A stretch of 32,000 nucleotides of DNA from Methanocaldococcus jannaschii DSM 2661 (lineage in GTDB: Archaea > AGJL01 > Methanococci > Methanococcales > Methanocaldococcaceae): assembly GCF_000091665.1 (NCBI RefSeq), contig NC_001732.1:6486-38485 (forward strand), given 5' to 3'. Position numbers and translations under genes: made by a program. Of this stretch, positions 2,680-29,731 are shown piece by piece (the stretch's first letter is position 1; each line of letters opens with the position of its first letter). The notes beneath the pieces were generated by a model. The model ran no database searches, had not been told where the DNA came from, and worked only from the letters and a program-made list of their open reading frames with translations.

Positions 2680-3405
2680 ATGAGGATTTTATTACTTGAG
2701 GGAATTACGGATGTTGCATTCTTCATTCCAATATTAAAGAAATTATATGGTTTTTCAGAAATTAGTTGTGATGGTATTATTAGAGCAGAAAAAATGGGAG
2801 ATATATCAAAACCAATATGTTTAGAGAATGAAGATGTTAAGTTGATAGTTTTCCACTCTGGAGGAAAATCAAAACAAAAACATGCTTTGACAGCAATGCT
2901 TACGGCTATTAAAATGGGTTATTTATCTAATATTAAAATCTTGGGCATTGCAAGGGATATAGACCAAGAGCATGATGTCAAAAACTGGACAAAGAGTATA
3001 ATAAAAAATGCTGGATTTGAAGTTAAAGAGGGTGACAAATTTTTGATTATAGAGGATTTAAACTTAAAAATAGCTGTTTTGGGTATTGCTAATTATGATG
3101 AGGATGATTTTAACATCCCATCATTTGAACTAAAAAGAGAACTCGAGGCAGTAATTACTGATATGGCTAAAGAAATCAGCATCATAGAAAAATTCAAAAA
3201 CTCTTTAGAATCATTAAGTAACGATGCTGAAAGAAGATTAAAGCCAAAAGACATAACGCACGTTTTAGCCATTGCTAAAAATTTTGACGGAGACTCCATG
3301 TCTGGCTTATATAGGAAATTTATTGAAGAGCAGATAAATAATAAAAATAAAGTGAACTTTTTATTAACACTAATATGTATTCTACCATGCCTCACCATCT
3401 TTTAA
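2680..3405 (+). CDS. Toprim-like protein (OLD/AriB/RloB-like nuclease partner of the ATPase)
   Basis: The start lies 2 nt after the ATPase stop, with GGGGGT upstream. MRILLLEGITDVAFF supplies the conserved Glu and ILGIARDIDQEHD about 85 residues later supplies the DxD, which is Toprim spacing. Confidence 0.55.
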   Translation: MRILLLEGITDVAFFIPILKKLYGFSEISCDGIIRAEKMGDISKPICLENEDVKLIVFHSGGKSKQKHALTAMLTAIKMGYLSNIKILGIARDIDQEHDVKNWTKSIIKNAGFEVKEGDKFLIIEDLNLKIAVLGIANYDEDDFNIPSFELKRELEAVITDMAKEISIIEKFKNSLESLSNDAERRLKPKDITHVLAIAKNFDGDSMSGLYRKFIEEQINNKNKVNFLLTLICILPCLTIF

Positions 3406-3674: not shown

Positions 3675-3700
3675 GTGAATTGACTTCAAAGTCAATTCAC
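3675..3700. repeat. Palindrome family copy P1 (GTGAATTGACTT-CA-AAGTCAATTCAC)
   Basis: Perfect 12+12 nt inverted arms around a CA centre, read directly. Confidence 0.95.
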
Positions 3701-3887: not shown

Positions 3888-4201
3888 CTTATTCATTAAA
3901 ACCTACAAAAATATTACCATTTTTGCATATATGCTGGATAAAAGTTGCTCTATCACTTAAAAGTTGCAGTTTTTTAATTGAAAGTTTTAAAGTTCTGATA
4001 ATAGAAATTCAAACATTAAAAATAGTATGTTGGATAAAACCATATAAAAACTATTTTTCCATTGAAATCACAATTTTTTCATGATACACAAAAGTTTAAA
4101 TACTTTTGTTTTGATAAAATTTTGAAAAAAATATTTATACTCGAAATTTTAAAGAAATAAGTATGTATAATCTCAGTTAAAAATTACTGAGGGTGATAAA
4201 T

Positions 4202-6001
4202 ATGTGTTATAATTTTGAAAATGTTAAAAAAGCTTATGAGGATCAACTTAAAAACTATATAAAAAATAGTTTAATTCCTAACCTCTCCTCACATGCAAAT
4301 AATGAAGTAGTTAAAATTTCAATGAAAAAACTGGCTAACTTGGGTTTTGGATATTTAGTGGATAGTACATTATCAAGTATAACTGGATATTATAAAGTTA
4401 GAGATTGGATTGAAGAATTATTAAAAGAGGAATTACAGAAATCTGGAGAAAATAAATGTTGTAATATAGTATTATGTGATTATCCAGAAGAGTTTGAGAT
4501 TAGCATGAGGGAAATTCCTTATTATGTTAATAAGGTTGTAAAATTTAATGGTGTTATTATTTCAGCATCATATCCTTGTGTTCTTTCTAAAAAACACTTA
4601 TATATATGCCCTAAATGTGGAAGGATAAAAGAAGTTTATTTTAGTGAATTATTTTGGGATGATAAGGTTTTTTGTGAATTTTGTGGAGGAAAGATGGAAT
4701 TTGCAAATGTGATGGATTATGAAAATTTTCAGGAATTAGTAGTCCAAGATTTATCTGATGAGAGTGAGTATTATGGTATTGAAAAAAACCCAATAGTTTG
4801 GTACTGTGGTGCAAAACCATATTATTTTGGACATGTGAAAATTACGGGAATTGTAAGGGAAGTTCCCAGAAGCTCAAAAAGTCGTATTTATGAGTTGATA
4901 GTTCAAGCTATAAATGTTGAAAAATTGGGAGTTGAAAAATCTCTAATAAATTTAACTGAAGAAGATGTTAAAAATATTAAGAAAGTTGCAAAGAGGGGAG
5001 ATATTATTGACATATTGGCTGATATATTGATCCCACCACTCCTCTGTGATGATGCGATTGTTAGAAAAGCCATACTTATACAGCAAATAGCCCCATATTT
5101 AGAGGACATAGGCAAGATTAACATTCTACTAGTAACGGAAGTTGGTATTGACAAGACAGCCATTCTAAAGAGAATTGGGAATATTCCTGGAAATAATTTT
5201 ATAAACATAGCGGCGTTGAAGGAGGAGGAATTAGCCACACCTTATGATAAAAGAAGTAATATACTGGGAAAATTTTATACTGTATGTGGAGGTGTAATTC
5301 CAAGGACTCTTGGAGTATTATGTATTGATGATTTTAACGAGAACAATAAATTAAGTACAAAATTATCTGAAGCTTTTGAGAGGAATGTTCTTACAACTAA
5401 TAAGGGTTCATTTTATTGCGTTCCCGCTGAGTGTAGTTTCTTATGTGCATGCTATCCTAAAACGAAATTTAGAAAGTTTGATCAAAAGAAAAGTATTATA
5501 AAACAGATAGGGATTTCGTCAATTTTATTAAAAAATTTTGATTTAATATTTCCAATTAGGGATATTCCCGACAAGGATAGGGATGAAGAGGTGGCAAAAT
5601 ACATTTTTCTAAAGTATATAAACTCAGATAATGAAGAAATTGAAGGATATGATTATGTATTTGTAGATGTTGGTGGAGAAAAAATAAAAATTGATTTTGA
5701 ATTTTTAAAAAAATATGTTGTTTACTCAAGACAAATAACTCCAAAAATAACTGATGAAGTCATAGAAAAAATTTCAAACTGGTATGATGAAATGAGGAAA
5801 AATCATTATATCACTGCAAAACAATTAAATACTGTTATAAAACTTAGTATAGCAGTAGCAAGGGCAAAATTAAAAGAGTGTGTTGATGAAGATGATGTCA
5901 AAGAGGCAATAGATATAATAATGCACTATTTAAAACAAGTTGTTTATAATCCAAAAAAGGGAATTATTGATGTTATTTTGTTGTATAAAAACAAAACATA
6001 A
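4202..6001 (+). CDS. mcm: MCM-family AAA+ protein with degenerate catalytic motifs
   Basis: GGGTGA lies 5 nt before ATG 4202; the ORF track starts at GTG 4193 inside the RBS. The C4 zinc ribbon is CPKC...CEFC (4607-4684). INILLVTEVGIDKTAILK, GVLCIDDFNE, NVLTTNKGSFYCVPAECSFLCACYP, NFDLIFPIRDIPDKDRDEEVAKYI and ITAKQLNTVIKLSIAVARAKL are colinear with the MCM core. Confidence 0.8.
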   Translation: MCYNFENVKKAYEDQLKNYIKNSLIPNLSSHANNEVVKISMKKLANLGFGYLVDSTLSSITGYYKVRDWIEELLKEELQKSGENKCCNIVLCDYPEEFEISMREIPYYVNKVVKFNGVIISASYPCVLSKKHLYICPKCGRIKEVYFSELFWDDKVFCEFCGGKMEFANVMDYENFQELVVQDLSDESEYYGIEKNPIVWYCGAKPYYFGHVKITGIVREVPRSSKSRIYELIVQAINVEKLGVEKSLINLTEEDVKNIKKVAKRGDIIDILADILIPPLLCDDAIVRKAILIQQIAPYLEDIGKINILLVTEVGIDKTAILKRIGNIPGNNFINIAALKEEELATPYDKRSNILGKFYTVCGGVIPRTLGVLCIDDFNENNKLSTKLSEAFERNVLTTNKGSFYCVPAECSFLCACYPKTKFRKFDQKKSIIKQIGISSILLKNFDLIFPIRDIPDKDRDEEVAKYIFLKYINSDNEEIEGYDYVFVDVGGEKIKIDFEFLKKYVVYSRQITPKITDEVIEKISNWYDEMRKNHYITAKQLNTVIKLSIAVARAKLKECVDEDDVKEAIDIIMHYLKQVVYNPKKGIIDVILLYKNKT

Positions 6002-7840: not shown

Positions 7841-8945
7841 ATGAAATTTTTCAACAGGGAGAAAGAGATTAATGAGATACTTCGAATTTTAAATAGAGAG
7901 CCAGACGATATTTATTTTATATATGGACCCTTAAACAGTGGAAAAACTACTTTAATAAATCACATAATAAACAATGAATTAAAAAAATCCAATAAAAAAT
8001 ATGCTGTCTTTTATGTTAATTTCAGAGAGTATGATATTTACATCAATGGATAATTTTGTTGAGGCATTGTTTGAAATAGACGAAAATTCGAAAGAAAAGA
8101 AGATAAAATCATACATAGAGAGTTTTACAAAGGGAGTTAATGATATTATAAACTTATACTATGGGATAAAGATTCCAGAGCCAATATTGGATAAGTTTTT
8201 TGGAGAAAAAGAAAAGGGGGGATTGGTTTTTAAGTTTATTAGAGATTTATTTATGAGTTTGAATAAGAAGGGAGTTCAGCCAGTATTCATTTTAGATGAA
8301 TTGCAGATGATTAAAGATATTGTTATGAATGGAGGAAAGCCATTATTAAAAAGCTTATTCCAATTTTTGGTTTCTTTAACAAAGGAGAGGCACATAGCAC
8401 ATGTTTTTTGCCTAAGTTCAGATAGTTTGTTTATTGAGTATGTTTATAATGCTGGAGAGTTAGAAGGAAGGGCGAAATATCTATTGGTTGATGATTTTGA
8501 TAAAGAAACTTCCTTAAAATTTATGGACTTTTTAGCAGTAGAAGGAAATATTAACTTAACTAATGAAGATAAAGAGTTAATTTATTCTTATGTTGGGGGA
8601 AAGGCAAAGGACATAAAGTATGTTATTGAAGAAAGTAAGTTTAAAGACTTAAGAGAGGTTTTGGACTTTATGTTAAAAGATGAGGTTTCCAAATTGAGAA
8701 AATTATTGGTTAAGATAAAAACTAAAAAGATTGCAGAAGTTGAGTATGAAAATGTTGTTAAAGCATTAAAATTATTTAAAGACAATTATGAAATCAACGA
8801 ATACCTTATGGACGAGAATACAAAAGAATTCTTAATTAAAAGGAATATCTTATTCTTAAACCCCGTAGAGGAGATTTTAAAGCCACAAAGTTATTTAGTT
8901 TGGAACGCAATAAAAAGAGTATTACAAAATATAAACGATTTTTAA
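7841..8945 (+). pseudogene. 'Archaeal ATPase' family P-loop NTPase, frameshifted near 8030-8045
   Basis: ORF 7841..8053 ([14 protein letters not shown]...GPLNSGKTTL...FYVNFRE) and ORF 8001..8945 (...[17 protein letters not shown]...FILDELQ...) together align end to end with the intact neighbour 8962..10059. The frame changes after FYVNFR at the (ag)3 run. Confidence 0.75.
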
Positions 8946-10116: not shown

Positions 10117-10329
10117 ATGAGCATTCTCATTTCTAATAAACAATTCAATCATGGGTTAAAGGATGAATTTGCTACTAAAAAGGATTTAGAATTGTTAGAA
10201 GAGAGGATTTTGAGATATGTTGATAATAAGTTCAATCAATTGGATAAAAAAATTGATAGGACTTTTTATTTACTTGTCTTCTTTATTATACTGTGGGTAT
10301 CTCGGGAGGCATTTTTTTATTTGATATAA
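10117..10329 (+). CDS. Small coiled-coil protein with C-terminal hydrophobic segment
   Basis: 70-aa ORF with KKDLELLEERILRYVDNKFNQLDKKIDR followed by FYLLVFFIILWV. It starts at the breakpoint of the vapC relic. Confidence 0.45.
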   Translation: MSILISNKQFNHGLKDEFATKKDLELLEERILRYVDNKFNQLDKKIDRTFYLLVFFIILWVSREAFFYLI

Positions 10330-10330
10330 T

Positions 10331-10415
10331 CCGAACGCCTCCCTCATCGACACCCGCTCCCCTTTACGGGGACAGACCCCCTACTGCCCCGATAGGGACA
10401 GCTAGGAAGTAGCCT
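10331..10415. ncRNA. GC-rich island with two tandem CCCC...GGGGACAG hairpins; candidate structured RNA or 3' element
   Basis: ccgaacgcctccctcatcgacacccgctcccctttacggggacagaccccctactgccccgatagggacagctaggaagtagcc stands out against AT-rich flanks. The hairpins are tcccc-tttac-gggga and ctgcccc-gata-gggacag. Confidence 0.25.
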
Positions 10416-10445
10416 TAAACTTTAATAATACTTATTATTGATAAA

Positions 10446-10754
10446 GTATTATACGTTCATACATATAAAAAATGTGAGAAAAATGAGAAAATAAAATATG
10501 TAATTTAAATTGTTAAGATTTAATAGTTTAAACGTGTGAAAAATGCTTGTTTTTAGAACATTGTATAATGTATTATGTAAATTATCTTTGGATATAATTA
10601 AAAATGTAAGAAAACCATTGAGATTTGGTGTAAAAGAGGGATAGATTGATTATATTGAAAAAAGTTTATGTTGTAAAGTGTATATTCATAATTGGTTTTT
10701 ACTAATGGACAAAATTATACAGTTTAAAATTTAAGTTTATAAATTAGTATTATT
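10446..10754 (+). repeat. Left copy of ~309-bp direct repeat
   Basis: The ends align nearly perfectly with 12770-13078 (gttcatacatataaaaaa..gagaaaaatgagaaaataaaa..atgtaatttaaatt ... aaaaccattgagattt..gtgtaaaag...agattgattatatt..aaaaagtttatgtt..taaagtgta...acaaaattatacagtttaaaatttaagtttataaattagtattatt). The centre is diverged. Confidence 0.85.
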
Positions 10755-10829
10755 CTCTTTTAGAATTTCTGCTATATGTTTAAAGCAGTTTTTCAATATT
10801 TATAATATAATTAAATCGTATGTTTGAAG

Positions 10830-10851
10830 TGGACTTTAGCCCCAAAGTCCA
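10830..10851. repeat. Hairpin tggacttt-agcccc-aaagtcca, related to the GACTT..AAGTC core of the palindrome family
   Basis: 8-bp perfect arms read directly. Confidence 0.7.
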
Positions 10852-10894
10852 ACAATGGTTAAAAATTTTCGGACACCATGCCAAAACATAGAGC

Positions 10895-10987
10895 AGATGC
10901 CACTGCAGTATATACAATATTATAATATTATATTATCAATGGCATACAGTGGCATCTCCAGAGAAGTGTAAATCCAATATGCCACTG
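10895..10987. promoter_or_regulatory. Origin-like element: AGATGCCACTG / CAGTGGCATCT inverted repeat around a 41-nt almost pure A/T spacer, plus a third ATGCCACTG
   Basis: AGATGCCACTG lies at 10895-10905 and its exact complement at 10947-10957. The spacer is cagtatatacaatattataatattatattatcaatggcata. ATGCCACTG recurs at 10979-10987. Confidence 0.4.
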
Positions 10988-11088
10988 AATATATAAAAGA
11001 AAACTATAATAATCCCTATTTTCAAAAAATAACTGTCATTACATAGCCTTGTTTGGTGAAAACACAGAAAAATTTGTAGTGATGTGTT

Positions 11089-11235
11089 ATGGGTATTATA
11101 GGTTTTGTTAATGCATTAGCTAACGTCTTTATACTACTTATATTAGGTATGGTAGGTATTTTTATTTTTGCATGGTTTTTGTTTTGCAGAGAAGATGAAG
11201 AGACAATTAGAAAAATAAAAGAAGATGATTGGTGA
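11089..11235 (+). CDS. Possible 48-aa single-pass membrane protein
   Basis: Own translation: MGIIGFVNALANVFILLILGMVGIFIFAWFLFCREDEETIRKIKEDDW*. This is one clean TM helix plus a charged tail. It is below the ORF-track size cutoff and the RBS is weak. Confidence 0.3.
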   Translation: MGIIGFVNALANVFILLILGMVGIFIFAWFLFCREDEETIRKIKEDDW

Positions 11236-11837
11236 AAGTGTGAAGTTATTAAAGATTTTTCTATTTGTTTTGTTTTGTAGTTAGAGTAGTTCTAAGTTGT
11301 GGTTGTATTGGAGATGAATGCACTCCACACCCATAGGCACTATAAGCGCGTTGAAAAGATGAATACAGTTTGTTCATGGAATGTGATAAAATTCATTAAA
11401 AATGAGTTTAAAACAATTCTTCACAATTCTTTAGGAGGATACTATGAGGTTGGTAAACTCTTTATTATAGCAGTGGCAACAAAACAGAAACAACCCTAAC
11501 TCTTTTATTAAGAATACCAACACCACCAAAACATCACCCAAAGCACCCTTATGAATAAAATGAACATCACACGAGAATCCACTCCCCTAACACTCTTTTT
11601 ACCCAACACCTTAACAACATTCATGAAACACCACACACAAACAAATCCTAAAATCAAAACATGCCACTGTATAAAACTATTGATAATAATTAATAATATA
11701 AAAATTATCAAACTTAATACTACCAAAACAAATAAAATAAATTCCCACCACAAAACAAAACAAACAAATATTATAATCACCAAACAATATAAAAACAATA
11801 ATATTATGTAAATTCCCATTAGGGAAAAGGTGAAAAC

Positions 11838-12282
11838 ATGCTCAAAAAACTATTTGGAAAAGACGATGAAAAAACAGACGAACGAATTAAAAAATTAGAA
11901 AACAGAATAGAAAAAATAGAATTAGAGTTAAAAACCATAAAAAACACAAGTTCATACCCACAAATTATAAGAATAGAAAAAGAACTCCAACAAATAATAA
12001 AAACAGACATTGACAAACTAACAACCCTATACATCAAACTCCAACCCAAACCCAACACCATAGAACAAACAAAAAATCATACAAATACTAAAACACGAAC
12101 AACCCCTACAATCATCAAAAATAGTAGAAAAACTAAAACCAAACATAAAATCAAAAGGAACAATCTACCAAGCCCTAAAACAACTACAAAAAGAGAAAAA
12201 AATAACAAAAGCCACAGTCAAAGAAAATGGTAAAAGAAAAGTATACTACAAACTCACAGATGAAAACACTGATATAACATAG
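11838..12282 (+). pseudogene. Coiled-coil plus winged-helix DNA-binding protein split by a +1 frame change near 12064-12080
   Basis: A strong RBS (AAGGTGA) precedes ATG 11838. The N-terminal part is coiled coil (ERIKKLENRIEKIELELKTIK...). After about codon 75 the tracked frame becomes low-complexity, whereas the +1 frame is open 12064-12282 and reads KIIQILKHEQPLQSSKIVEKLKPNIKSKGTIYQALKQLQKEKKITKATVKENGKRKVYYKLTDEN*. Confidence 0.6.
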
Positions 12283-12324
12283 AAAACATCCCTAATCCTA
12301 ATTGTTAAAAACATTAATTATCAA

Positions 12325-12364
12325 GGGAGGTTGCCACACTTTTTAAAAAGTGTGGCAACCTCCC
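12325..12364. repeat. Perfect 40-nt palindrome GGGAGGTTGCCACACTTTTT|AAAAAGTGTGGCAACCTCCC
   Basis: Checked base by base: 20+20 nt with no mismatch. It lies 42 nt after the wHTH frame stop. Confidence 0.95.
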
Positions 12365-12651
12365 AAATATTCCTATAAGAAACAAAATTTACCATAAAGT
12401 AATAAAAACCCCATAAACTTATTTTCCTATAGGATAAATGCCATTGACTATTAGAAAAACAACACTCTTTTATGCCACTGCTAACACACAATAAATTTCC
12501 ACATTCTATACACAATAAAGTGTTTTTAACCGTAATTTTCAACATTGGACTAACCACTCTAACAGAAATGTGAAATACCCCACACACTTCCAAGACATGA
12601 AACGCCCCTTATTTTTCAATTTTTCAATTGTATTTACTAACATTCACAAAA

Positions 12652-12687
12652 GAGGAACAGCCAATTTTTAAAAATTGGCTGTTCCTC
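12652..12687. repeat. Perfect 36-nt palindrome GAGGAACAGCCAATTTTT|AAAAATTGGCTGTTCCTC
   Basis: Checked base by base: 18+18 nt with no mismatch. It shares the TTTTTAAAAA centre with the 12325 palindrome. Confidence 0.95.
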
Positions 12688-12769
12688 CAACACCATAAAA
12701 ATGCAGACAACAAACCAAAAACCCATTAAGCAACATACTGAGATTGAATTATTACAACCTATAAAAATA

Positions 12770-13078
12770 GTGTTATATGTTCATACATATAAAAAACATG
12801 AGAAAAATGAGAAAATAAAAGATGTAATTTAAATTATTGTAATTTTTCTATTTTTGTGAGTAAATTGTGTTTAGTTTAAGAAGTATTCCCCACTTATTAT
12901 GTAAGTGGATTATTTACTCCACTAAAAATGTAATAAAACCATTGAGATTTAGTGTAAAAGATGAATAGATTGATTATATTAAAAAAAGTTTATGTTATAA
13001 AGTGTACCTTGATAATCAGTTTTCACCAATAGACAAAATTATACAGTTTAAAATTTAAGTTTATAAATTAGTATTATT
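12770..13078 (+). repeat. Right copy of ~309-bp direct repeat
   Basis: See 10446-10754. Confidence 0.85.
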
Positions 13079-13103
13079 GAAAACTAAATAATAAATTATG
13101 TGT

Positions 13104-13349
13104 TTAAATATTTATTGTTTTTAGTATTTGTTCAAATTCTGTGTATTTGATTTTGACTGGGAATAATAGTACGTTTCCAAAAAAGTTATTTTTATATTTC
13201 AATCCTTTAATGTTATATACCATGCTAATGTATTCTAAGATTGTATCAACAATGCTATCATTTAAGTCTCCCAATACAATTCCATAATAAGTTTTCCAGT
13301 AATCAGCAATATCATCTTCTTTTAAAGGATTAAAAAGTGATTTACCCAT
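13104..13349 (-). CDS. Hypothetical protein, 81 aa
   Basis: The ORF has normal amino-acid composition (MGKSLFNPLKEDDIADYWKTYYGIVLGDLNDSIVDTILEY...). A degraded copy of its 5' part lies at about 21300-21400. A palindrome copy sits 2 nt upstream of the start. Confidence 0.5.
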   Translation of the reverse strand: MGKSLFNPLKEDDIADYWKTYYGIVLGDLNDSIVDTILEYISMVYNIKGLKYKNNFFGNVLLFPVKIKYTEFEQILKTINI

Positions 13350-13351
13350 AT

Positions 13352-13375
13352 TGAATTGACTTTGAAGTCAATTCA
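13352..13375. repeat. Palindrome family copy P2 (TG centre, i.e. P1 in opposite orientation)
   Basis: tgaattgactt-tg-aagtcaattca, with perfect 11-bp arms. Confidence 0.95.
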
Positions 13376-13429
13376 CGATTATGGAAATAGTGAAACAGTG
13401 TTAGAATAAAACAAAAAGGGTAAATAAAC

Positions 13430-13633
13430 TTATTTCTTCAAAGCTAGTTTTACGTCTTCGACTTTTACTGTTTTTCTCTTTGCCATGTTTTGCCAAGTCA
13501 ACAGCTTCTTTAGCTATTTCCAAAGCTAAATCTTCTATAGCCTCAGCAAAGTATTCCGCTGCAGCCCTACTAACTCTCTCAGCCCCATCCTTTTTTAATA
13601 TCCTTACAAACGGTGCAACTGAAGCTCAGCCAT
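13430..13633 (-). pseudogene. Archaeal histone gene with two compensating frameshifts (-1 near codon 5, +1 near codon 50)
   Basis: It has the same 204-nt length as the intact histone gene (29732-29935) and keeps RBS, ATG and TAA. My alignment shows actgaagctc versus actggaagctc (1 nt lost) and 67 versus 66 nt between ctttgc and gtattc (1 nt gained). The central 45 codons ([43 protein letters not shown]) are out of frame with both ends. Confidence 0.8.
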
Positions 13634-13699
13634 AACACCACCCAAAAAAACTTATACTCAAAAATTATCAATTAAAACCTACAAAAATATTACTATTTT

Positions 13700-13990
13700 T
13701 GTACATATACACCTCCCAATATTATAATATTCTACAATACAATAATTACATAATACCACAATACAATAATCCAAAATCATGCTAAAGAAAAATCCAATAA
13801 AACCCAAAAGAATAACATGATTACATAATAAAACAATACAACAATTAATTAATAACATAATAAAAATAAAAACTTGTTAAAATTATAATATTTTAAACTA
13901 ACTAAAAAGAAAATAAAAATATAAAAATTAAAAGAGGGGGAGAGCCCGAGAGGGGAAGGGGAGAAAATGAGAAAAGTGGAAATACTATAA
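13700..13990. repeat. Arm 1 of a long inverted repeat (partner 31640-32000) with GC-rich polypurine core
   Basis: The reverse complement of 31640-31760 aligns with 13850-13985 (ataaaaataaaaacttgt..aaatt ... aaaattaaaagagggggagagcccgagaggggaaggggagaaaatgagaaaag). Core: 13934-13962. Confidence 0.7.
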
Positions 13991-14174
13991 ATAGAATATG
14001 AAACTGTCAGTTTAACTTTTATCAATAATATAGGTAAAAAATAGTAAAATATGAGGCTCACGATAGTGGCTATAAAGGAGAGAATCGTGGAAAAGAAGTA
14101 TTCAGATTAAGAAATTGCGTAGAAATCCTTCTTATTGCTTAAACGAAGAATTAAAGCATTCTATAACAGATTTC

Positions 14175-14262
14175 TTAATAATAGTAGATTCAATACGGTA
14201 ATTAGCTGGATAAAAAGCTTCATGATGTTCTATAATTGGATGCAATTGTTAACTTGACAACC
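14175..14262. repeat. Left copy of ~90-bp direct repeat flanking the helical-repeat gene pair
   Basis: ttaataatagtagattcaatacggtaattagctggataaaaagcttcatgatgttct...gttaacttgaca aligns with 15674-15763. The minus strand of both copies reads like a decayed protein C-terminus ([16 protein letters not shown] / HEVFNPANNSIKFTIL). Confidence 0.65.
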
Positions 14263-14396
14263 TCTAATAGAATAACCCTACCATCAAGTATTTTACCAGT
14301 ATTTTTTAGATTTTAAAGGTAAAAGATTTCTTTGGTGTTAAAATAGATTAGGAGTATAGAAAAGTTGATTATTTGGTTAATCCGTAGGTGATTTTT

Positions 14397-15023
14397 ATGT
14401 TTCATAGTGGAGCTATGGAGTTGCTTAAAATTGCAGAGAAGTTGTATGACAAAGATTCAGAGAAAGCTGTTGAAGTATATGATAAAGCAATTAAAAAGGC
14501 TGAAAGGATTTATGATGATTATGCTAAAGCCGTTATTTTGTCCAATATAGCCAAATCTCTATATAGCAGAGGTTTAACTAACAAGGTTATTGAAGTATAC
14601 AATAAAGCCATAAAAATAGCAGAGGAGAGTAGTAAAAGAGACGTAATACTATCAAAAATTATTGAAAATTTATGTAGTAATAGGTTGATAGATAAAGCGT
14701 TGGAGGTTGTGAATAAGATATCTGATGATTCTTCTAAGGCTATAGCATTATCTGAGATAGCAAAAGCTCAATACAATATAGGAATGCATGATGAAGCCCT
14801 TAAGAATTATGATAAGGCAATTTTTATAACTGAGGGTGTTTTTGATGATGAGATTAAATCTTCAATACTGTTTGAAATATCCAGAGATTTTTATAACTAT
14901 GGACTAGTAGATAAAGCATTTGAAGTTATTGGAAAGATACCTTACTCTAAGTATAGGTTCAGGTTGTTAGATAAAATGGCAGAAGATTTGCATAAGAATA
15001 TTAAATATATACATGGAGAGTAA
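14397..15023 (+). CDS. Helical-repeat (TPR-like) protein
   Basis: AGGTGA lies 5 nt before ATG 14397; the track starts at GTG 14388 inside the RBS. It has a repeated ~38-aa unit of the type A..V..KI.DD..KA.ALS.IAK..Y..G..D.A. Confidence 0.7.
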   Translation: MFHSGAMELLKIAEKLYDKDSEKAVEVYDKAIKKAERIYDDYAKAVILSNIAKSLYSRGLTNKVIEVYNKAIKIAEESSKRDVILSKIIENLCSNRLIDKALEVVNKISDDSSKAIALSEIAKAQYNIGMHDEALKNYDKAIFITEGVFDDEIKSSILFEISRDFYNYGLVDKAFEVIGKIPYSKYRFRLLDKMAEDLHKNIKYIHGE

Positions 15024-18647: not shown

Positions 18648-21119
18648 TCATAATACTTGTTTGATTTTTTGTATTATTGAGTAGTTTTTAATTATATTGA
18701 AATCAAGGGCATAAACATGTCCTCTTTTACATCCTGATATTACAATATTGTCTTTGATGGACAAATCTAACACTGCACTTTCTGTTTTAAACTTCCATAT
18801 TTCCTCACCAGTGTTAATATCAAGAGCATAAAGATAATTATCACATCCTAATAATACAGCATCATTTTTAATAGACAAACCATTCACATCCCCATCTGTC
18901 TTAAATGCCCATAAATTCTCCCCTGCATTAATATCAAGAGCATAGACACATTCTCGATTACATCCCAATATTACAATATCATCTTTAATAGATAATCTTA
19001 ATACAGACCCTACTACCTTAAATCTTTCCATCTTCTCTCCTGTATTAATATCAAGAAGATAAACATAACCTCCCCTACATCCCAACAATACATTATCCTT
19101 TTTAATAGATAAACTCTTTACCTCTCCTTCTGCCTTAAACCTCCATAGTTCTCTACCAGTGTCAATATCAAGAGCGTAAAGATAATTATCACATCCAAAT
19201 AGCAAAATGTCATTTTTTATGGATAAATTCCGTATGGATTTTCCTGATTTTGCTTTAAACTCCCATAACATATTTCCTGCATTAATATCAAGGGCAAGTA
19301 TATATCCTTTTTTACATCCCAACACAACAATATCGTCTTTAATAGATAAACTCCTTACATCATGCTTTATCTTAGACCTCCATATTTCTCTTCCTGTATT
19401 AATATCAAGAGCATAAGCATACCCTTCCTCCAATATTTTTCCATTTTTCAACATGACAATGCTCTCAAATATATTTCCACATCCTAATACAACAATATCA
19501 TCTTTAATAGACAAACCCCATACTGTATCCTCTGCCTTGAATTCCCATAATTTCTTACCAGTTTTAATATCAATGGCATAAACATGTCCCGAAACACATC
19601 CTAATATTACAATATCACCTTTAATAGATAATAACCTTACACCCCCCTCTGCCCTAAACTCCCACAATAACTCATCTACTCTTTTAATCCCTAAAATATC
19701 CAATATAAACTTACCAACATTAATTGCTAACTCATCATTTGAGTTATTTACCAATTCAATTAACTTATTCATATAATAATTAAATACAGCCCTATTTTCA
19801 TTGAAAATGTTTTTAAATCTGCTGTATATTTCTTTATAGTTTGATGTGTTTAAATTATCTATCTCTTGTTTTAGGATTTTGTCAATTTTTTCTGGCCTCA
19901 TGTCATCTACATTATCTCCTTTAAATTTTGTAATTGTTAATACTTCTGTAAATCTTTCTTTGTATCGTATGTTAAATTCATCTTCAAACTCTACAACAAT
20001 ATCTATCGGTAGTTTTCCTTTAACTTTTGGATTTATAAAAAGGTTAATGACTTTTGTGTCTCTTCCTCTAATTTTTATCGGCTCTATGTCTTTAAATAAA
20101 ATATCTTCTTCGTTTATTATTGAAATTTTCGATATTGTTATATCTTTTAATGATTTGTTTGTTATTTGTATTGGTAGTTCATCCCATTCATTCAAATTAA
20201 GTGATTTTTTTAATAGGGTTAAATCTATCTTTACTATTTCTTTCATTATATTAGTTAGTTGTGGCCTAACTCTTTGTATTTTTGAATACAGGTTAGTATC
20301 AAGGGCATAGACACACCCCCACATGTCTGCCAATATAGTAACATCCCCACTTATCAATAAATCACTTACATGCCACTCTCCACCAAACTCTAATATTTTC
20401 TCACCTGTTTTAATATCAAGGACATAAAAATATTCACACCCATATTCATCCTCACATCTCAATATTATTTTATCATCTTTGATAGATAACTCCCATACAC
20501 ACCACTCTGCTTCAAACTCCCACAATTTACCTCCTGTCCTAACATCAATAGCATAAATGTATTTATCCCCATCACCCAATATAACAATATTATCTTTGAG
20601 AGAAAAACCCCACATACGCTCTCCTACCTTGGACTCCCATATTTTATCCCCAGTCATAACATCAAGAACGCAAACATGCCCACCTCTATATTCCAACATT
20701 ACAATATTATCTTTGATGAATAAACTATCTACATTGTGCTCTACTTTATATTCCCATATTTTATTCCCTGTCTTAATATCAAGGGCAAAAAGATGGTTAC
20801 TACACCCTAATATTATAATATTATCTTTGATATCTTTGATGGACAAATCCCATACACTCCCCCCTGCCTTAAACTCCCATATTATGCTATCTTTTAAAAT
20901 ACATAACATAAACTTATCAATTTCAAGTGATAACTCATTATCATCTAAATTTTTCATTAACTCAATTAATTTATCCACGTAATAATTAAATATATCTCTA
21001 TTTTTGCTAAAAACATTTTTAAATTTGTCATATATTTCTTTATAGTTTGATACGTTTAAATTATCTATCTCTTGTCTAATGTTTTCAACTCCATTGATTT
21101 TATTTTCTACAAAAACCAT
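18648..21119 (-). CDS. PQQ-like beta-propeller repeat protein with internal tandem duplication
   Basis: GGTGA precedes ATG 21119 (the track starts at 21131). There are many ~40-aa units such as DI.TGK.LWEFKAE..V..LSIKDDIVVLGC..G.VYALD. A helical module occurs twice (EIDNLNVSNYKEIYDKFKNVFSKNRDIFNYYVDKLIEL / EIDNLNTSNYKEIYSRFKNIFNENRAVFNYYMNKLIEL). No signal peptide was seen. Confidence 0.8.
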   Translation of the reverse strand: MVFVENKINGVENIRQEIDNLNVSNYKEIYDKFKNVFSKNRDIFNYYVDKLIELMKNLDDNELSLEIDKFMLCILKDSIIWEFKAGGSVWDLSIKDIKDNIIILGCSNHLFALDIKTGNKIWEYKVEHNVDSLFIKDNIVMLEYRGGHVCVLDVMTGDKIWESKVGERMWGFSLKDNIVILGDGDKYIYAIDVRTGGKLWEFEAEWCVWELSIKDDKIILRCEDEYGCEYFYVLDIKTGEKILEFGGEWHVSDLLISGDVTILADMWGCVYALDTNLYSKIQRVRPQLTNIMKEIVKIDLTLLKKSLNLNEWDELPIQITNKSLKDITISKISIINEEDILFKDIEPIKIRGRDTKVINLFINPKVKGKLPIDIVVEFEDEFNIRYKERFTEVLTITKFKGDNVDDMRPEKIDKILKQEIDNLNTSNYKEIYSRFKNIFNENRAVFNYYMNKLIELVNNSNDELAINVGKFILDILGIKRVDELLWEFRAEGGVRLLSIKGDIVILGCVSGHVYAIDIKTGKKLWEFKAEDTVWGLSIKDDIVVLGCGNIFESIVMLKNGKILEEGYAYALDINTGREIWRSKIKHDVRSLSIKDDIVVLGCKKGYILALDINAGNMLWEFKAKSGKSIRNLSIKNDILLFGCDNYLYALDIDTGRELWRFKAEGEVKSLSIKKDNVLLGCRGGYVYLLDINTGEKMERFKVVGSVLRLSIKDDIVILGCNRECVYALDINAGENLWAFKTDGDVNGLSIKNDAVLLGCDNYLYALDINTGEEIWKFKTESAVLDLSIKDNIVISGCKRGHVYALDFNIIKNYSIIQKIKQVL

Positions 21120-21405
21120 TCTCATCACCAAAAAAACTTTTATTTATTTCAAAATTTTTCTAATAACACACCATTCAATTATCGAAATTAGATTAATAAT
21201 TCCATTACAAGTGTCTCTAACACTTCACCATATTTTTATTATAATTTCATTATACCTTAATAGCATATTAAATTCAATAACCCAACTTTAATTTTGCACT
21301 TATTAAGATTTGTAACATTATCAATGCCCCCTACCATAATTCCATAATGAGTTTTTGGAGGTTTCACTAAAAGAAGTAATCTACAGCATTCTTTAATTAT
21401 ATGTC

Positions 21406-21429
21406 TGAATTGACTTTAAAGTCCATTCA
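21406..21429. repeat. Palindrome family copy P3 (TA centre, one arm mismatch)
   Basis: tgaattgactt-ta-aagtccattca, ending 154 nt upstream of the parA start. Confidence 0.85.
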
Positions 21430-21583
21430 TCCCTTAACATTCCTTATAAAGAAATACTCTATAAAAGTTTATTATTACATTATTGCATTAAACAGTTAAA
21501 CATATAACCAATAATTTAAATATGAAATAATGTAATGCCATAATACTGTAATAAAATAATAGAATATCTAATGGTGAGAGTTT

Positions 21584-22363
21584 ATGGTTGTAATTTCAAT
21601 TGCAAATCAAAAAGGGGGTGTTGGAAAAACAACAATAGCATTAAACCTATCATTTACACTTGCAGAAAAGGGGTATGATACTTTAGTAATCGATTTAGAC
21701 CCACAATTCAACTTATCCTTTGGAATTTTGGGAATGAAATTATTAGATTATGCTGATAAAAATATTGGAATACTATTATCAAAAAATTCTGTTAAGAAGA
21801 AAGAAATTGAAGAGTCTATTATAAAAATTAATGATAAGTTAGATTTAATCCCCTCCCACTTGCAGCTTTCTGCTGTAGAAAAAATGTTAGTTAATGCTTA
21901 TGCAAGGGAAATGAAGTTGAAAAATATCATTAACCAAATCAAAGAAAATTATGACTACATAATAATTGATAATGCCCCATCATTAGGACTATTTTTAATA
22001 AATTCATTAGTGGCATCTGATTATATTATCATCCCATGTGAGCCAAGTTATTTTAGTATTGCAGGAGTTCAACTAATGTTAGATACTGTTGAGGAAATAA
22101 AAGAATCAAACTTGAATCCAAAACTTAAAGTTTTAGGGTTTATTTTCAACAAGTACTCTAAACAATCAAAAATTCCACAAAAGAGGTTAGAACAGTTAAA
22201 ACAACTCTATCCTAACATTCCAGTAATTGGAGTAATTCCAAGAACTATTACTGTTGAAAAGGCAGAACGTGAGGGAAAACCTGTGTTTAAATTTGATGCT
22301 AATAATCCTGCAAGTGTTGCATTCTCAGAACTTGCTGAGTGGGTGATAGAAAATGTCAAATGA
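21584..22363 (+). CDS. parA: ParA/Soj/MinD-family partition ATPase
   Basis: GGTGAG RBS. Deviant Walker A NQKGGVGKTT (21605-21634), DLDPQ, and IIIDNAP Walker B. Confidence 0.92.
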   Translation: MVVISIANQKGGVGKTTIALNLSFTLAEKGYDTLVIDLDPQFNLSFGILGMKLLDYADKNIGILLSKNSVKKKEIEESIIKINDKLDLIPSHLQLSAVEKMLVNAYAREMKLKNIINQIKENYDYIIIDNAPSLGLFLINSLVASDYIIIPCEPSYFSIAGVQLMLDTVEEIKESNLNPKLKVLGFIFNKYSKQSKIPQKRLEQLKQLYPNIPVIGVIPRTITVEKAEREGKPVFKFDANNPASVAFSELAEWVIENVK

Positions 22364-23709: not shown

Positions 23710-24036
23710 AATTTCACCCAAATAAACTCTTTATTTTAATTAAAAATATTATTTTAGAGTATTTAAAAGTTGAACATGCCATATTACATTAGCTGTGAAT
23801 CTAAAGTTGAAAATTAACCTTTACTGTCTTTATGACATCATAACCACACTACCTATTGTATTATTTTATTACATCATAATTTAATTGCATTATAACATAA
23901 TAACATTATTCCATAATTCTTTATACAATAATTATTTAACAATGGCATTAAACAATTACTTAAAAATTTAAATACACAAAACAACATTGCAATATTGCAA
24001 TAATAAAATAATTCATTAACTAAAAATAATAAAGTG

Positions 24037-24062
24037 GTGAATTGACTTTGAAGTCAATTCAC
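24037..24062. repeat. Palindrome family copy P4 (TG centre, full 12+12)
   Basis: gtgaattgactt-tg-aagtcaattcac, 20 nt downstream of the stop of the 162-aa gene. Confidence 0.95.
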
Positions 24063-24571: not shown

Positions 24572-25045
24572 AATTTGAAAAATAGCAAAATGTCAAATGC
24601 AATGTATTCCCCCATACTATCAATATGTAAAGTAATCCATATTTAAAACTATCCTAAGCCTAGTAACAAACACAAAGAATGCAAATAAAAAGAAAAGATG
24701 AAAAATGTGACATTTAGCACATTAAATGCCATTGTTATAAAATAAACAAAGACAAAACTTTCCTCCCTAGCAATTTTGAGTTAAGAGAGACAACCAACCT
24801 GCAGCAATTTTTGAGAATTTTAGTAAAGGGAATTATCCCTTACATAATACACGCAAAAAGTGCAATCTTGTTGCGGAAATTCATTCTTACTTTTAAATTT
24901 ATTATCTATTTGTTTGCATAAGATTTAAATGTATTGTTATATCTATTAATTTTTGCTAATGTTTATTAATAAAATATTTAAATATATTGATTAATATTAT
25001 AAAACTCTTAAAATTCATCATCACTTTTTTGTATTGTTGTTTTAA

Positions 25046-28000
25046 TTAGGTAATCCGCAGCAATCCAGGTTTTGGCTCGTATATTACCCCCAACTTTTTC
25101 AACTTTTCTAATGCTTTATAGAATACTTCTTCAACAAACTTCAATTTTTCAACAATTAGTTCATATAATTCCATTTCTAATATTTCCCCTCCATTTTCTT
25201 CAATTTTCTTTTCAATAACTTTTTCACACTTTTCAACACTGTTAGAGTTAATATTTTGTTTTATAATCTCATATAGCGTTTTAAACTCTTTGTTAAGTTC
25301 TTTTATTTCAACTACTGCATTTTCCCCCAGTTTTTTTACTCCTCTAATTACACAATTAAATATTGCTCTTATCAATCTTCTAACTTCATCCAAGGTTAGA
25401 GTGAATCCACATTCTTCTTTTATAACCTCTATTAATTCTCTAATTTTGAATTTTTGTCTTTCAATGGCAAAATCTCTAACTTTTATTAACACTTTTGCAA
25501 CTAATGACCTTAACCCTAACTTTCTCCTATCTAATCTCTCATCATCTTCTCCTACTACAATATTCCATACTGCTCTTATAATCCTTTGAATCTTACCCCA
25601 TTTTGATGGAGGGCATAAGAATGTTTTTAGAATTAGCTCTTCTATAATTCTTGCCAATGTTGAGAGTTTATCCTTATGTTCCTCTAACAATTTCAAATCA
25701 ATATGGTAAATTTTCTTTGTTTTTCTATCTTCATTTTCATTAATTTCTTTAACAATTTTCTTATACTCGTTAATTTCTTCTAAGCATTTTTTAATAGTAT
25801 TTTCATCTAAGTTCGATTTTTTATCATCATCTTTTCCTTTATTCAACATTAGGTTATACACTTCTATAACTTCTGGAATATTATAAACATCTTTTAACAC
25901 GTTTATACTCCTGTTAATCCTTTTTGAGTGTTTTTTTATTAATTGTGGAGTGTATTCATCCCTACAATCTTTAAATTTCTTATAATTATTATATTCCAAG
26001 GCATTTTTGATTTCATTCACTCCATATTCTTTAAATGCAATAATTATATGTTTTGCACTAACTTTTTCAAGATATTCGAGATAATTATATTTTAAGAACT
26101 TATCCAGCTTACTTTCTTTTAACTCTTTTATTGTTTTAATTGCAAACTCATAGCCAGTAGTTTTTTCTAAATACTCTTTTAGTAATTTATAATCTCTTGT
26201 AATATGGGCCTCTAATAGACTATTATAAATGTGTGCTATTTCATCTTCATCTAAAACCCAATCCTTCTTTTCCTCATCATAATATATTGCATTTTGAATT
26301 TGAGAAATCAACACTTTCTTATAATTTTTATCCAATTCTTTTAAAACTTCAATATCCGTTTCTAAATACTCTTTTAATAGTTTATAATTTTCCTTAAACA
26401 TTTCAATCATTGCATTATAATCAATAATCATTGGCTCTTCTTCTCTTTCTTTAAAAGGTGCTGTGACAATTAACTCTCCCCCACCATTCCTACATCTGGC
26501 AATAAACTGTCTAATGGTGGTAGCACTCTTACAATACAATGCCCATACCAAATCAACATGATTTTTAATATTAACTCCCTCAGAAATGACTCTTGTGGCT
26601 AAAATTAACCCCTCTTCTGGTACTTTTTCTTCATTAATAATCATTTTACTTGCCTTGTCAATTCCAACAGTCTCTCTTGTTATAACGTAAATTGGCTTGT
26701 TAAAACCATACAATTCTAAAGTATATTTTATATTCTCAATCATTTTCTTATTATCAACTAAAACTACAGCATTTTTTATCCATCCCTGTCTAAACATTAG
26801 TAGGATGTATTCACAAAACTCTCCAATAATATTTTTTGCAATATGGATAGAACATCTTTCAAATAATTTTTTCTCATCTTTAAATTCCACTTCTATAACT
26901 GGATAGTTATTCAAATTAATTAACTCTGGAGTTGCAGTTAGTAAGACACAACCTCCAGCCCTGTCTATACACTTTTTTACCCCTGTTATTGCCCTTTTTC
27001 TAAACTCTTTTTGGATTACTAAATCATGTGCTTCATCTATTGCCAATAGAATATCCTCTTCATTAGCAACTTGAATTTTCTCCCCTTTATAAGTGTCATA
27101 ACATAAATCATTAAGCATATTTTCAACTTGGTCGTAGGTCCCAATGGTCAAATAATGAATAGTATTCTTATCCAATTTTTTCCCATCTTCATAATACATT
27201 GGAACTACTACTCCATCAGCGTGTAATCCTGCCCCTACTTGTAAAACTTGTATTTTATATGGGAATGCCACTGCTATAGCATGTTTTTTAAATACCTCTT
27301 TAATTTCTCTTGTATTTCTTGTTAGAGTATAAGTTTTCCCCCTTCCAGTGTCTGCTTTAAGAAATACTGGAACTCCTTGTTCAATAGATAATTGGTATGC
27401 TTTTATTATAGCCTCTTTTGGTAAGTATCCTTCTGCTTCTATCTTTATTGTTTCTCTATCGAGTAGTTCATTCATTATCTCTCTAACAGTCCTATAAGTG
27501 GATGGCTTTGGATTAATATTGTGTAATTTTAAAAATTCTATTATTTTATCCCTAAATTCTTTAATCATCCATAATCCTGCTAATGCAATAAATCTCATAT
27601 TTGGATCGTGGAAATCTACCATTACTGCATTATATCCCTCATTAATGTAAATAGAACAGTCAGGATTTTTCCCATCATCAAAGAATAAACTCCATAAGTC
27701 TAATCTGGTTCCATTTTTACCATATTTATAATCAATTCCCAAGTAGGAGAGGAGTTTTTCAATCCATCTTTTACCCAATTTTTTAGTTAATTTATCTTGT
27801 ATAGTATATAACCATTTGTAAATTCTTTTATTTATATCTTGCAATATAGTTTTATTAAGATTTGGTTTTTTTATTAATCTATTAATTGTTGTGGTAATGT
27901 TGTTTAATCCTCGCTTATTGTATAATTCTTCTCTTTTTTCATTGAATAATACTTCAAATTCTTTATAATTTTCAATAATTCCAAACTTCTCATACAATAT

Positions 28001-28864: not shown

Positions 28865-29077
28865 TGGTCACTCACCTTACTGTGGGTAGTATATATTCAT
28901 TGGTCACATCTCTTGGTCATACACCTCGACCATGCCTACACTAAATACTCCCTAATGTTGCAATACCTTAACATATAATGCAATACAATACTGAGCTCTT
29001 TTGATACAATCTATGTAATTTAAAGAGTATAAGAAACATTTTCAGGGGGCGACCATTTCTATATTATTTTTTGAAGT

Positions 29078-29246
29078 ATATAAACTTTTAGTTATTTTTT
29101 GAATTTGTATATTTGGATTTATATCATATAACTTTTTCTGAAAATTTTTCCTGACATATCTATTAGGTAGTTAGTATATATATATTTTTCGGATTTTTGC
29201 ATGTTTTTACACTTTATCTTCTAATTTTATAACTAAAAGTTTATAT
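29078..29246. repeat. 18-bp perfect inverted repeat pair (29078-29095 and 29229-29246) in the AT-rich gap next to the replicase gene
   Basis: ATATAAACTTTTAGTTAT and ATAACTAAAAGTTTATAT are exact reverse complements, separated by 133 nt. Confidence 0.9.
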
Positions 29247-29624: not shown

Positions 29625-29650
29625 GTGAATTGGCGTTGAATTCAATTTAC
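29625..29650. repeat. Palindrome family copy P5 (degenerate)
   Basis: gtgaattggcgttgaattcaatttac, in the same position relative to the histone gene as P1 and P2. Confidence 0.6.
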
Positions 29651-29731
29651 AAAAGAGACATTCTATATATATAATTTACTTATAATTATATTCAAAAATA
29701 GTGTTATAATAAACAAATGGATAAAATGGGC

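Follow-up and report, generated by a model that had tools for sequence, protein, structure and literature searches.

Archaeal operators that lie over the transcription factor B recognition element (BRE) and the TATA box, or over the transcription start, are used for repression by Lrs14 and members of the TrmB family, and activation at weak BREs is exerted by TFB-RF1 and Ptr2. Bacterial iteron plasmids of the RepA/pi type combine an origin with an operator of the rep gene. To our knowledge, almost nothing is known about gene control, replication and segregation of extrachromosomal elements in hyperthermophilic methanogens. Here, we analyzed the whole 32,000-nt stretch of contig NC_001732.1 (the window), in which copies of the 9-mer ATGCCACTG form an array at and beside an 11-bp inverted repeat, close to a frameshifted gene for a small winged helix-turn-helix (wHTH) protein. 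The Pfam families of the window's proteins (MJ0349 and MJ1010-like), the nearest named relatives of its MCM helicase, which belong to Methanocaldococcus, and near-identical pieces in hydrothermal-vent assemblies point to an extrachromosomal element of Methanocaldococcus.

The most economical reading assigns the array to the known class of archaeal operators that overlap the core promoter. As in that class, a short site occupies the BRE slot and abuts the TATA box, and partner sites are placed close to the predicted start; the gene of a small winged-helix regulator is located nearby, and one site lies upstream of that gene itself, which suggests autoregulation. The array differs from described members in that its site is an asymmetric 9-bp word and not a dyad, and occurs singly, in tandem and in facing pairs with spacers of 12-41 bp. 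The unusual feature would be that this asymmetric word replaces the BRE, with the predicted site filling the whole slot in several mutually unrelated promoters from a single plasmid family.

Enrichment and layout of the 9-mer

The 11-bp inverted repeat reported in the initial annotation is exact and lies at the coordinates given there (AGATGCCACTG at 10895-10905 and its reverse complement CAGTGGCATCT at 10947-10957). The 41 nt between the arms, cagtatatacaatattataatattatattatcaatggcata, had been described as an A/T spacer; its length holds, whereas it is not purely A/T, with an A+T content of 83% against a window mean of 72%, a level matched by about 10% of all 41-mers in the window. A variant site, CAATGGCAT at 10937-10945, had been overlooked within this spacer, so that the nearest facing sites are 31 bp apart. 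The local layout of the four sites is → 31 bp ← ← 23 bp →, with orientations + - - + and centre-to-centre spacings of 40, 10 and 32 bp, and the other copies lie 0.7-1.5 kb away.

Exact copies of ATGCCACTG occur at 10897(+), 10947(-), 10979(+), 11661(+), 12472(+) and 27265(+), and the earlier impression that this exceeds chance is borne out: six copies compare with 0.10 expected, and none of 100 dinucleotide-preserving shuffles reached six. When one mismatch was allowed, 18 copies were found against 2.9 expected. Formal k-mer statistics on the window gave a second-order Markov expectation of 0.09 (Poisson p=7e-10), and an unbiased k-mer survey ranked ATGCCACTG as the second most over-represented 9-mer family. 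The clustering is likewise unlikely under random placement (five of the six copies inside 1584 bp, chance 1.4e-4), and the near-copies at 12438 and 11471 are present as described. The copy at 27265 lies inside the primase-helicase coding sequence (codons IAVA; GCA GTG GCA = Ala-Val-Ala) and that at 11471 inside a possible small open reading frame (ORF); both are probably coding coincidences.

A further variant site, ATGCCATTG followed by TTATAAAATA, was observed at 24726-24890, 320 bp downstream of the primase-helicase gene and before a relatively G+C-rich stretch. This stretch is conserved in a related 59-kb contig (L017, ~13100-13240), where the site reads ATGCCATAG. The region is possibly a small RNA gene or a 3' regulatory element.

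Sites in the BRE position of predicted promoters

In M. jannaschii, the TATA box has the consensus TWTATATA and occupies -31 to -24, with the BRE formed by the 9 nt directly upstream (PMC2699501). We examined 22 non-coding sites from the window and three related contigs (L012, L215 and L017) for matches of at least 7/8 to this consensus. At 5 of the 22, a TATA match starts at the very next base (window 10979, L215 298, L017 5724, L012 2950 and L012 3198), and at a sixth, window 10897, it starts at offset 3. With a background of 0.7% per position in the non-coding DNA of the window, the binomial probability of this adjacency is 4e-7, or 1.4e-5 when one homologous pair is removed. Since the TATA match begins at the next base, the 9-mer exactly fills the 9-nt BRE slot, and does so in otherwise unrelated contexts. 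Its sequence is unlike the BRE preferences of the host (A, C, C, G at -40 to -37).

We infer start sites from the same geometry (PMC2699501) by placing them 31 nt from the first base of each TATA box. In the window, the predicted starts at 10940 (+) and 10905 (-) fall within the sites at 10937-10945 and 10897-10905, respectively, and the predicted start at 3158 in L012 lies just beside the site at 3160-3168. Further starts are predicted in the window near 11019 (+) and 11701 (+), from the TATA boxes at 10988 and 11670. Partner sites of opposite orientation are found 21-41 bp away, at or near the predicted start. Two opposed boxes lie between the facing sites of the window, TATATACA at 10909-10916 (+), matching TWTATATA at 7/8 positions, and ATAATATA at 10936-10929 (-), matching at 6/8. 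From its sequence, the inverted repeat looks like two interleaved, opposed core promoters, each with one site at the BRE and another at the start.

Several of these sites face genes. Window 10979 is directed at an ORF of 48 codons, 101 nt downstream of the 9-mer, and L215 298 at a coiled-coil/winged-helix ORF 78 nt downstream. A co-oriented downstream gene is also present for window 23948, L017 17898 and L017 5724 (a histone gene, 350 nt), while none is found for L012 2950 and 3198. The sites at window 23948(-) and L017 17898(+) belong to a conserved 29-nt block, TTAATGCCATTGTTAAATAATTATTGTAT, which includes ATGCCATTG and faces an MJ1010-like ATPase gene in both.

Organization of the cassette

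The clustered copies sit in a segment of about 2 kb (10755-12759) between direct repeats of about 320 bp. Its features, with the flanking repeats, are as follows.

10436-10754, + strand: left direct repeat of ~320 bp (families D12 and D17, spacing 2324 bp, 75-91% identity)
10895-10905, + strand: site 1, AGATGCCACTG, left arm of the inverted repeat; TATATACA (10909-10916) follows 3 nt later; 11-mer conserved in L215
10906-10936, no strand: 31-bp A/T-rich stretch between the facing sites, with two opposed TATA-like boxes
10937-10945, - strand: site 2, variant ATGCCATTG, in tandem with site 3 at a 10-bp period (one helical turn)
10947-10957, - strand: site 3, AGATGCCACTG, right arm
10979-10995, + strand: site 4, ATGCCACTG followed directly by AATATATA; 7/8 TATA match at offset 0; faces the 48-codon ORF
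11089-11235, + strand: 48-codon ORF, single-pass membrane peptide, called as a gene in independent contigs
11314-11499, + strand: doubtful ORF of 61 codons, no Pfam match, containing the near-copy CAGTGGCAA at 11471-11479
11661-11677, + strand: site 5, ATGCCACTG plus TATAAAAC, 177 nt upstream of the wHTH gene
11838-12282, + strand: coiled-coil and PadR-like wHTH gene, two halves in different frames
12325-12364, no strand: perfect palindrome with an 18-bp stem, GGGAGGTTGCCACACTTT/AAAGTGTGGCAACCTCCC, just past the wHTH stop codon (z = -9.8)
12438-12446, + strand: site 6, variant ATGCCATTG
12472-12480, + strand: site 7, ATGCCACTG
12652-12687, no strand: another perfect palindrome, GAGGAACAGCCAATTTTT/AAAAATTGGCTGTTCCTC, conserved in contig L011 past the wHTH gene (z = -9.9)
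12760-13078, + strand: right direct repeat of ~320 bp

The palindrome at 12325-12364 is likely a bidirectional terminator or a binding site. It lies with the sites at 12438 and 12472 in a 354-bp segment that is missing from L011 and its related contigs, and homology of L011 to the window begins only at 11678, the base after ATGCCACTG plus TATAAAAC; for these two reasons we regard the cassette as mosaic. The ~320-bp element has single further copies in L011 (~981-1297) and L017 (~8007-8378), in different neighbourhoods, and contains a promoter-like, canonical-looking GAAAAAAGTTTATGT and a conserved block, AAAACCATTGAGATTT. Its ATTGAGATTT is also present in L267, and the element is possibly a small gene or a site of frequent recombination. 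The 11-bp inverted repeat was also considered as the terminal repeat of an insertion sequence or a miniature inverted-repeat transposable element; this was rejected, as no transposase and no matching distal repeat were found.

The wHTH protein

The wHTH gene is divided by a 5-bp deletion, placed at about 12066-12080 within a CAAAA repeat (near 12070), into an ORF of 131 codons and an out-of-frame wHTH half; joined, the two frames encode a protein of 148 residues. An intact homologue of 146 residues (P0001) is present in vent metagenomes and is 79% identical over 99% of the reconstructed protein. The truncated 131-residue product is recorded in 11 contigs, and the frameshift is therefore real and the intact protein is not needed for persistence.

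The reconstructed protein matches the Pfam PadR family (PF03551) with 35.2 bits (cut-off 27, 1.3e-8). P0001 scores 22.2 bits against PadR, below the cut-off, and passes that of HTH_11 (31.6 against 25). Its AlphaFold model (mean predicted local distance difference test score 80.6) starts with two long helices (3-37 and 40-67), continues with a winged helix-turn-helix and stops after the beta wing (E121-138). The best Foldseek matches of the model are the repressors YodB, AdcR, PadR and LmrR, with E values of 2e-3 to 2e-2 for PadR, LmrR and YodB. The protein thus resembles the PadR family, including LmrR and PadR themselves, in its wHTH domain and structural matches, and departs from it in carrying about 70 residues of two long helices at the N-terminus, in having no C-terminal dimerisation helix and in the sub-threshold score of P0001. 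From the Pfam match and the model, a role as site-specific regulator is plausible. Among 1.84 billion proteins, this tiny family has 12 representatives. A paralogous relationship to the C-terminal winged helix of the primase-helicase was rejected, as the similarity is generic only (pairwise E 0.01-0.03).

The wHTH gene and its 340-bp leader (11500-12300, +) are extremely poor in G on the coding strand, with 53% A, 21.5% C, 18% T and 7% G (GC skew -0.46), whereas all other genes of the window have more G than C on the coding strand. A+C-rich leaders also precede the wHTH homologues in L011 (240-840) and L271 (4200-4400).

Co-occurrence of the sites with wHTH genes

Contigs L011-L016 were retrieved through the wHTH protein, without use of the motif. 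They share the order ParA (divergent), wHTH, palindrome, 320-bp element, 81-residue protein gene, 25-bp palindrome, 268-residue protein gene and histone. In L012 and L013, four to five ATGCCAYTG/ATGCCACAG sites lie within 250 bp downstream of the histone gene, in a context non-homologous to the window, and in L012 they include two facing pairs with spacers of 12 and 21 bp.

Scans of viral and metagenomic sequences for motif pairs yielded mostly chance matches, which were filtered by G+C content and copy number; among the matches listed, L215 alone proved to be related, and L168, an AT-rich match, was rejected as unrelated. The other loci numbered L022-L261 were left out of consideration. In L215, 113 bp are 71% identical to window 10894-10998 and keep the plan → A/T ← … →TATA, with the same 9-mer and TATA arrangement as site 4 at 298-314. 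The array lies 78 bp upstream of the coiled-coil/winged-helix ORF, whose product is distantly like the window protein. The motif itself led to L215, and we therefore give weight only to features that played no part in the selection: the neighbouring gene, the TATA box and sites three and four.

More distant homologues gave partial parallels. L267, whose wHTH protein is 43% identical, has seven ATGCCA cores around the gene against 0.5 expected. In L268 (36%), non-coding DNA rich in iterons extends over 1 kb before the wHTH gene. On L270, a complete plasmid of 9.8 kb, the order is primase, ATPase, short repeats, 41-residue membrane peptide and wHTH, which echoes the ATPase … array, 48-residue peptide … wHTH of the window.

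No site cluster was found in 87 kb of related plasmid and integrated-element DNA that carries MCM or primase-helicase genes and no wHTH gene. This set includes 22.9 kb of the 59-kb contig L017, ERZ27262685:k141_758499, whose primase-helicase is 89% identical to that of the window; L017 has no close MCM, and the MCM-bearing contigs examined instead showed no cluster. Overall, a cluster was present in three of four cases with a wHTH gene and in none of six without one (Fisher p=0.03).

Proposed function of the array

Taken from sequence, our favoured reading, which we hold with about as much confidence as doubt, is that the array is a set of operators overlapping the BRE and start positions of small cassette promoters and bound by the wHTH protein of the cassette. 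The ATGCCAYTG words would be recognition sites for a sequence-specific DNA-binding protein, placed to control transcription of the mobile cassette, and we infer that the likeliest binder is the cassette-encoded coiled-coil/PadR-like wHTH protein. When bound, it would compete with TFB and TBP at the BRE and TATA box and with RNA polymerase at the start, leading to repression. Alternatively, since the 9-mer is a poor BRE, the protein might recruit the basal factors and so activate. In either case, the array would set expression of the ORF for the 48-residue membrane peptide and of the wHTH gene itself, and other plasmid genes with single sites, such as the ATPase gene and the histone gene of a relative, may be regulated likewise. 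Given the 5-bp deletion in the regulator gene, the circuit may be in decay, or else may depend on regulator supplied in trans or made through rare frameshifting.

Several points weigh against this proposal. All promoter positions of the array are predictions from sequence, and a good TATA box abuts only 6 of the 22 sites. The two TATA-linked sites of L012 aim at the 3' end of the histone gene, with no obvious ORF. L011 has the wHTH gene and no cluster in 3.6 kb, and the 9-mer is missing from the promoter region of that gene. Assignment of the wHTH protein as binder relies on co-occurrence in a few short contigs, of which L215 came from a motif-conditioned scan, and in the window the regulator gene is frameshifted while the sites are intact. 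Finally, distant wHTH homologues lie beside iteron-rich non-coding DNA (L268), which would fit a role in replication or partition as well.

Alternative explanations

The sites may serve as operators or promoter elements for another factor, either a host Methanocaldococcus regulator or a different plasmid protein, with the wHTH gene as a bystander. This would account for sites that remain perfect beside a broken wHTH gene and for the clusterless L011, as well as for L017, where three non-coding single sites occur and no wHTH gene is present in the 22.9 kb covered of its 59-kb contig. That last observation extends to this portion of L017 only, and clusters accompany wHTH homologues in the window, in L012/L013 and in L215, with a diverged core in L267. 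We regard a different binder as unlikely.

The initial annotation had offered a replication origin beside an operator cluster. The operator half of that proposal is supported by abutment of TATA boxes in the BRE position, by sites facing small ORFs and by recurrence beside the wHTH gene, whereas the tests that we ran lower the likelihood of the origin half. As an origin or copy-control locus, the facing sites would bind a recognition protein, and the A/T stretch of 31-41 bp would melt and load MCM or the primase-helicase; the part of binder could fall to the primase-helicase, through its C-terminal winged helix, to the Orc-like MJ1010-type ATPase encoded next to the array or to the small wHTH protein. 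Archaeal origins typically comprise an A/T-rich region, inverted recognition boxes on either side and an adjoining initiator gene, including that of the winged-helix protein WhiP (PMC4010727). The geometry of the array resembles this general plan, in that inverted words surround an A/T-rich stretch, an arrangement conserved between the window and L215, and a winged-helix gene adjoins. It differs from origins with origin recognition boxes (ORBs) bound by Orc1/Cdc6 or WhiP (PMC4010727) in having neither an ORB sequence nor an adjacent Orc1/Cdc6 gene, and in a spacer that is short, unexceptional beyond the 40-bp scale and variable among relatives (12-41 bp). In the gene and Pfam annotation of the window, no orc1/cdc6, whiP or Cdt1-like gene was found adjacent to the array; its neighbours are an MJ1010-type ATPase gene and the frameshifted PadR-like gene.

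Stability calculations were divided by scale. At 40 bp, the spacer is among the 1.6% least stable stretches, whereas at 60-200 bp the locus ranks at 54-86% for instability, and long, easily melted stretches are located elsewhere (13.7-13.9, 24.9 and 29.0-29.7 kb, the last beside the primase-helicase gene). In L012, the facing sites are 12 and 21 bp apart, distances that appear too short for unwinding. The proposed likeness to mini-ORB elements did not hold up: with the consensus core TTCCAGTGGAAAC and up to three mismatches, the window has eight matches against 8.6 expected, with none in 10895-10987, and the sites have only CAGTGG in common with the consensus. Nor does GC skew single out the locus, as had been suggested as a check, because its sign changes coincide with changes of coding strand and the local maximum near 11 kb is one of several; skew is for this reason uninformative as an origin test.

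The genetic context also argues against an origin. In relatives, the cluster is unlinked to MCM and primase-helicase genes, being absent from the 22.9 kb of the relative with the 89%-identical primase-helicase, and in the window the array is inside a repeat-bracketed, mosaic cassette, 4.9 kb from the end of the MCM gene and 14 kb from the primase-helicase gene. The adjacent wHTH gene is inactivated in an element found in 11 contigs, and pure origin boxes would not be expected to adjoin TATA boxes at five different promoters. Iteron plasmids of the RepA/pi type similarly have a word that occurs as an inverted pair at a promoter and in extra copies, and a winged-helix binder gene adjoining. They differ in that the array contains no set of at least three regular, helically phased direct repeats, the homologous protein has 146 residues and a single winged helix, the MCM and primase-helicase genes are far off and the wHTH gene is dispensable in this element. 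We retain an origin as an improbable explanation because origins can contain promoters and because L268 and L270, the latter with its recurring order of ATPase, repeat cluster, membrane peptide and wHTH, place the wHTH family beside repeat-rich DNA.

Two other regions were observed in this connection. Upstream of the primase-helicase gene, 28865-29700 is a long, very A/T-rich non-coding region that, at the 200-bp scale, ranks with the least stable parts of the window. GTGACCAATGAA-like words recur in it three to four times, one over the start codon, and are conserved in L011; it also has a 32-nt inverted repeat (29064-29095/29229-29260). By position, this region is a better candidate both for an origin and for autoregulation of the replication gene. 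In L268, the ORF-free stretch 1-1017 contains at least three iteron families (GTTATCGGT in five tandem copies, GTTAGTAGT in six and TGTAGTTGA/TGCAGTTGA in six) and a 100-bp direct repeat, and looks more origin- or centromere-like than the array of the window.

A bolder form of the promoter reading is that the 9-mer substitutes for the BRE, such that, in a promoter class specific to mobile elements, a plasmid-encoded wHTH protein reads ATGCCAYTG and provides promoter recognition and direction in place of TFB-BRE contacts; facing pairs around two opposed TATA boxes would then be switchable bidirectional promoters. We consider this a long shot.

A plasmid centromere, with the array as partition site and the wHTH protein as a centromere-binding adaptor for ParA, appears very unlikely to us. 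The small archaeal winged-helix proteins AspA and SegB autoregulate and nucleate partition complexes, and AspA of the Sulfolobus plasmid pNOB8 spreads after binding to a palindrome that precedes the AspA gene (PMC5120986). This precedent, the head-to-head arrangement of the wHTH and ParA genes in L011-L014, the mixed orientation of the clusters and the long coiled-coil, through which the protein could oligomerise, speak for such a role, and the locus shares with the pNOB8 system a small winged-helix protein of the kind that is dimeric there, with sites upstream of its own gene (PMC5120986). Unlike in pNOB8 (PMC5120986), the wHTH gene is not part of a ParA/ParB operon, and is divergent from ParA where the two adjoin; the site is not a 23-bp palindrome; and the ParA gene of the window lies 10 kb from the array with its own 110-residue partner encoded downstream. 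Furthermore, the ParA-wHTH intergenic DNA of L011 and L012 has no 9-mer cluster, no ParA gene is adjacent within the short contigs L215 and L267, the wHTH gene is broken in the window, and a centromere role alone leaves single sites at the BRE positions of unrelated promoters unexplained.

Octamer arrays of another kind were found near partition and toxin genes. Up to nine tandem copies of ATAATACA/TTGTATTA occur at 30055-30146 and 31904-31976, inverted around a PIN/AF2212-like toxin-antitoxin pair, and related arrays (13712-13866, 21497-21573 and 23847-23923) flank the block of ParA, 110-residue protein and ATPase genes. These arrays could be centromere-like or regulatory iterons.

Finally, targets of a site-specific recombinase that shuffles modules among mosaic plasmids are highly improbable: the motif and TATA box at 11661-11677 border the L011 homology, those at L017 5724 lie just outside a block homologous to window 30224-29974, and 320-bp repeats bracket the cassette, but these are two junctions only, promoter regions are often mosaic junctions anyway, ORF and Pfam annotation recognised no recombinase gene in or beside the cassette, and the fixed TATA adjacency is left unexplained.

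Other features of the element

Besides the cassette, the window contains the following replication and partition genes, together with three MJ1010-type "archaeal ATPases", one histone and one PIN toxin.

4193-6001: MCM helicase
21584-22363: ParA ATPase, with a 110-residue partner gene downstream
25046-28864, - strand: primase-helicase-like protein of 1272 residues

Relatives of the element are scarce. Searches of PLSDB matched neither 10300-14400 as DNA nor the primase-helicase as protein, viral contigs contained no relatives of the primase-helicase or the wHTH protein, and no wHTH relative was found among species-representative genomes. In the same genomes, the sole match to a primase-helicase profile was a 39%-identical integrated copy in the chromosome of Methanothermococcus sp. 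Ax23, without the 9-mer motif. Scans of the window for tRNAs and Rfam families gave none at gathering thresholds and noise alone at E<=1, leaving an attachment-site or non-coding RNA explanation of the locus unsupported.

The most over-represented word family of the window is a 25-bp palindrome, TGAATTGACTTYRAAGTCAATTCAC, with 10 copies of its 10-mer core against 0.08 expected. It occurs in the window at 3676-3700, 13352-13376, 21406-21430, 24038-24062, 29626-29650, 30200-30224, 30551-30575 and 31541-31565, and in relatives at L011 2905-2930, L017 5773-5797 and L269 ~618-643. One copy lies 3 nt before the start codon of the 81-residue protein gene, others lie just past the stop codons of genes, and that of L017 is ~9 nt downstream of the predicted start of the motif and TATA promoter. 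It is probably a second operator or terminator system common to the plasmid family.

Additional observations concern single genes and structures. A G+C-rich island of ~85 bp (10330-10415) in DNA of 28% G+C lies directly 3' of a gene for a 70-residue MJ0349-family protein; no Rfam family matches it, its predicted folding is not significant (z = -1.1 and -1.9), and a small hairpin at 10831-10850 is not significant as a structure. At 13401-13640 (- strand) lies a histone pseudogene with a broken frame and an ORF remnant of 40 codons; its DNA shares 79% identity with the intact histone gene at 29732-29935, and its identity to the histone of L017 is 90%. The MJ1010-type ATPase gene at 8001-8945 is without an in-frame N-terminus, which is found in a separate 70-codon ORF (7841-8053), and from its sequence this paralogue (7841-8945) appears to be frameshifted too. 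A protein of 827 residues (18648-21131, - strand) consists of ~39-residue (117-nt) repeats that resemble beta-propeller or pyrroloquinoline quinone (PQQ)-type blades and are the source of most direct-repeat families of the window.

Implications

The analysis removes a tempting but weak origin call and directs attention to better candidates, namely the long A/T-rich region with repeats that precedes the primase-helicase gene and the DNA full of iterons beside distant wHTH homologues. If the array were a replicator after all, a replicon from a lineage that lacks canonical Orc1/Cdc6 would for the first time have a defined origin, which the present evidence makes unlikely. If the 9-mer does substitute for the BRE, this would be an archaeal plasmid family with sigma-like, self-encoded promoter specificity. 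Methanocaldococcus is the main in vitro model of archaeal transcription, and a defined 9-bp site in the BRE slot, together with a candidate binder that has an intact homologue in P0001, forms a pair directly testable in the M. jannaschii RNA polymerase/TBP/TFB system.

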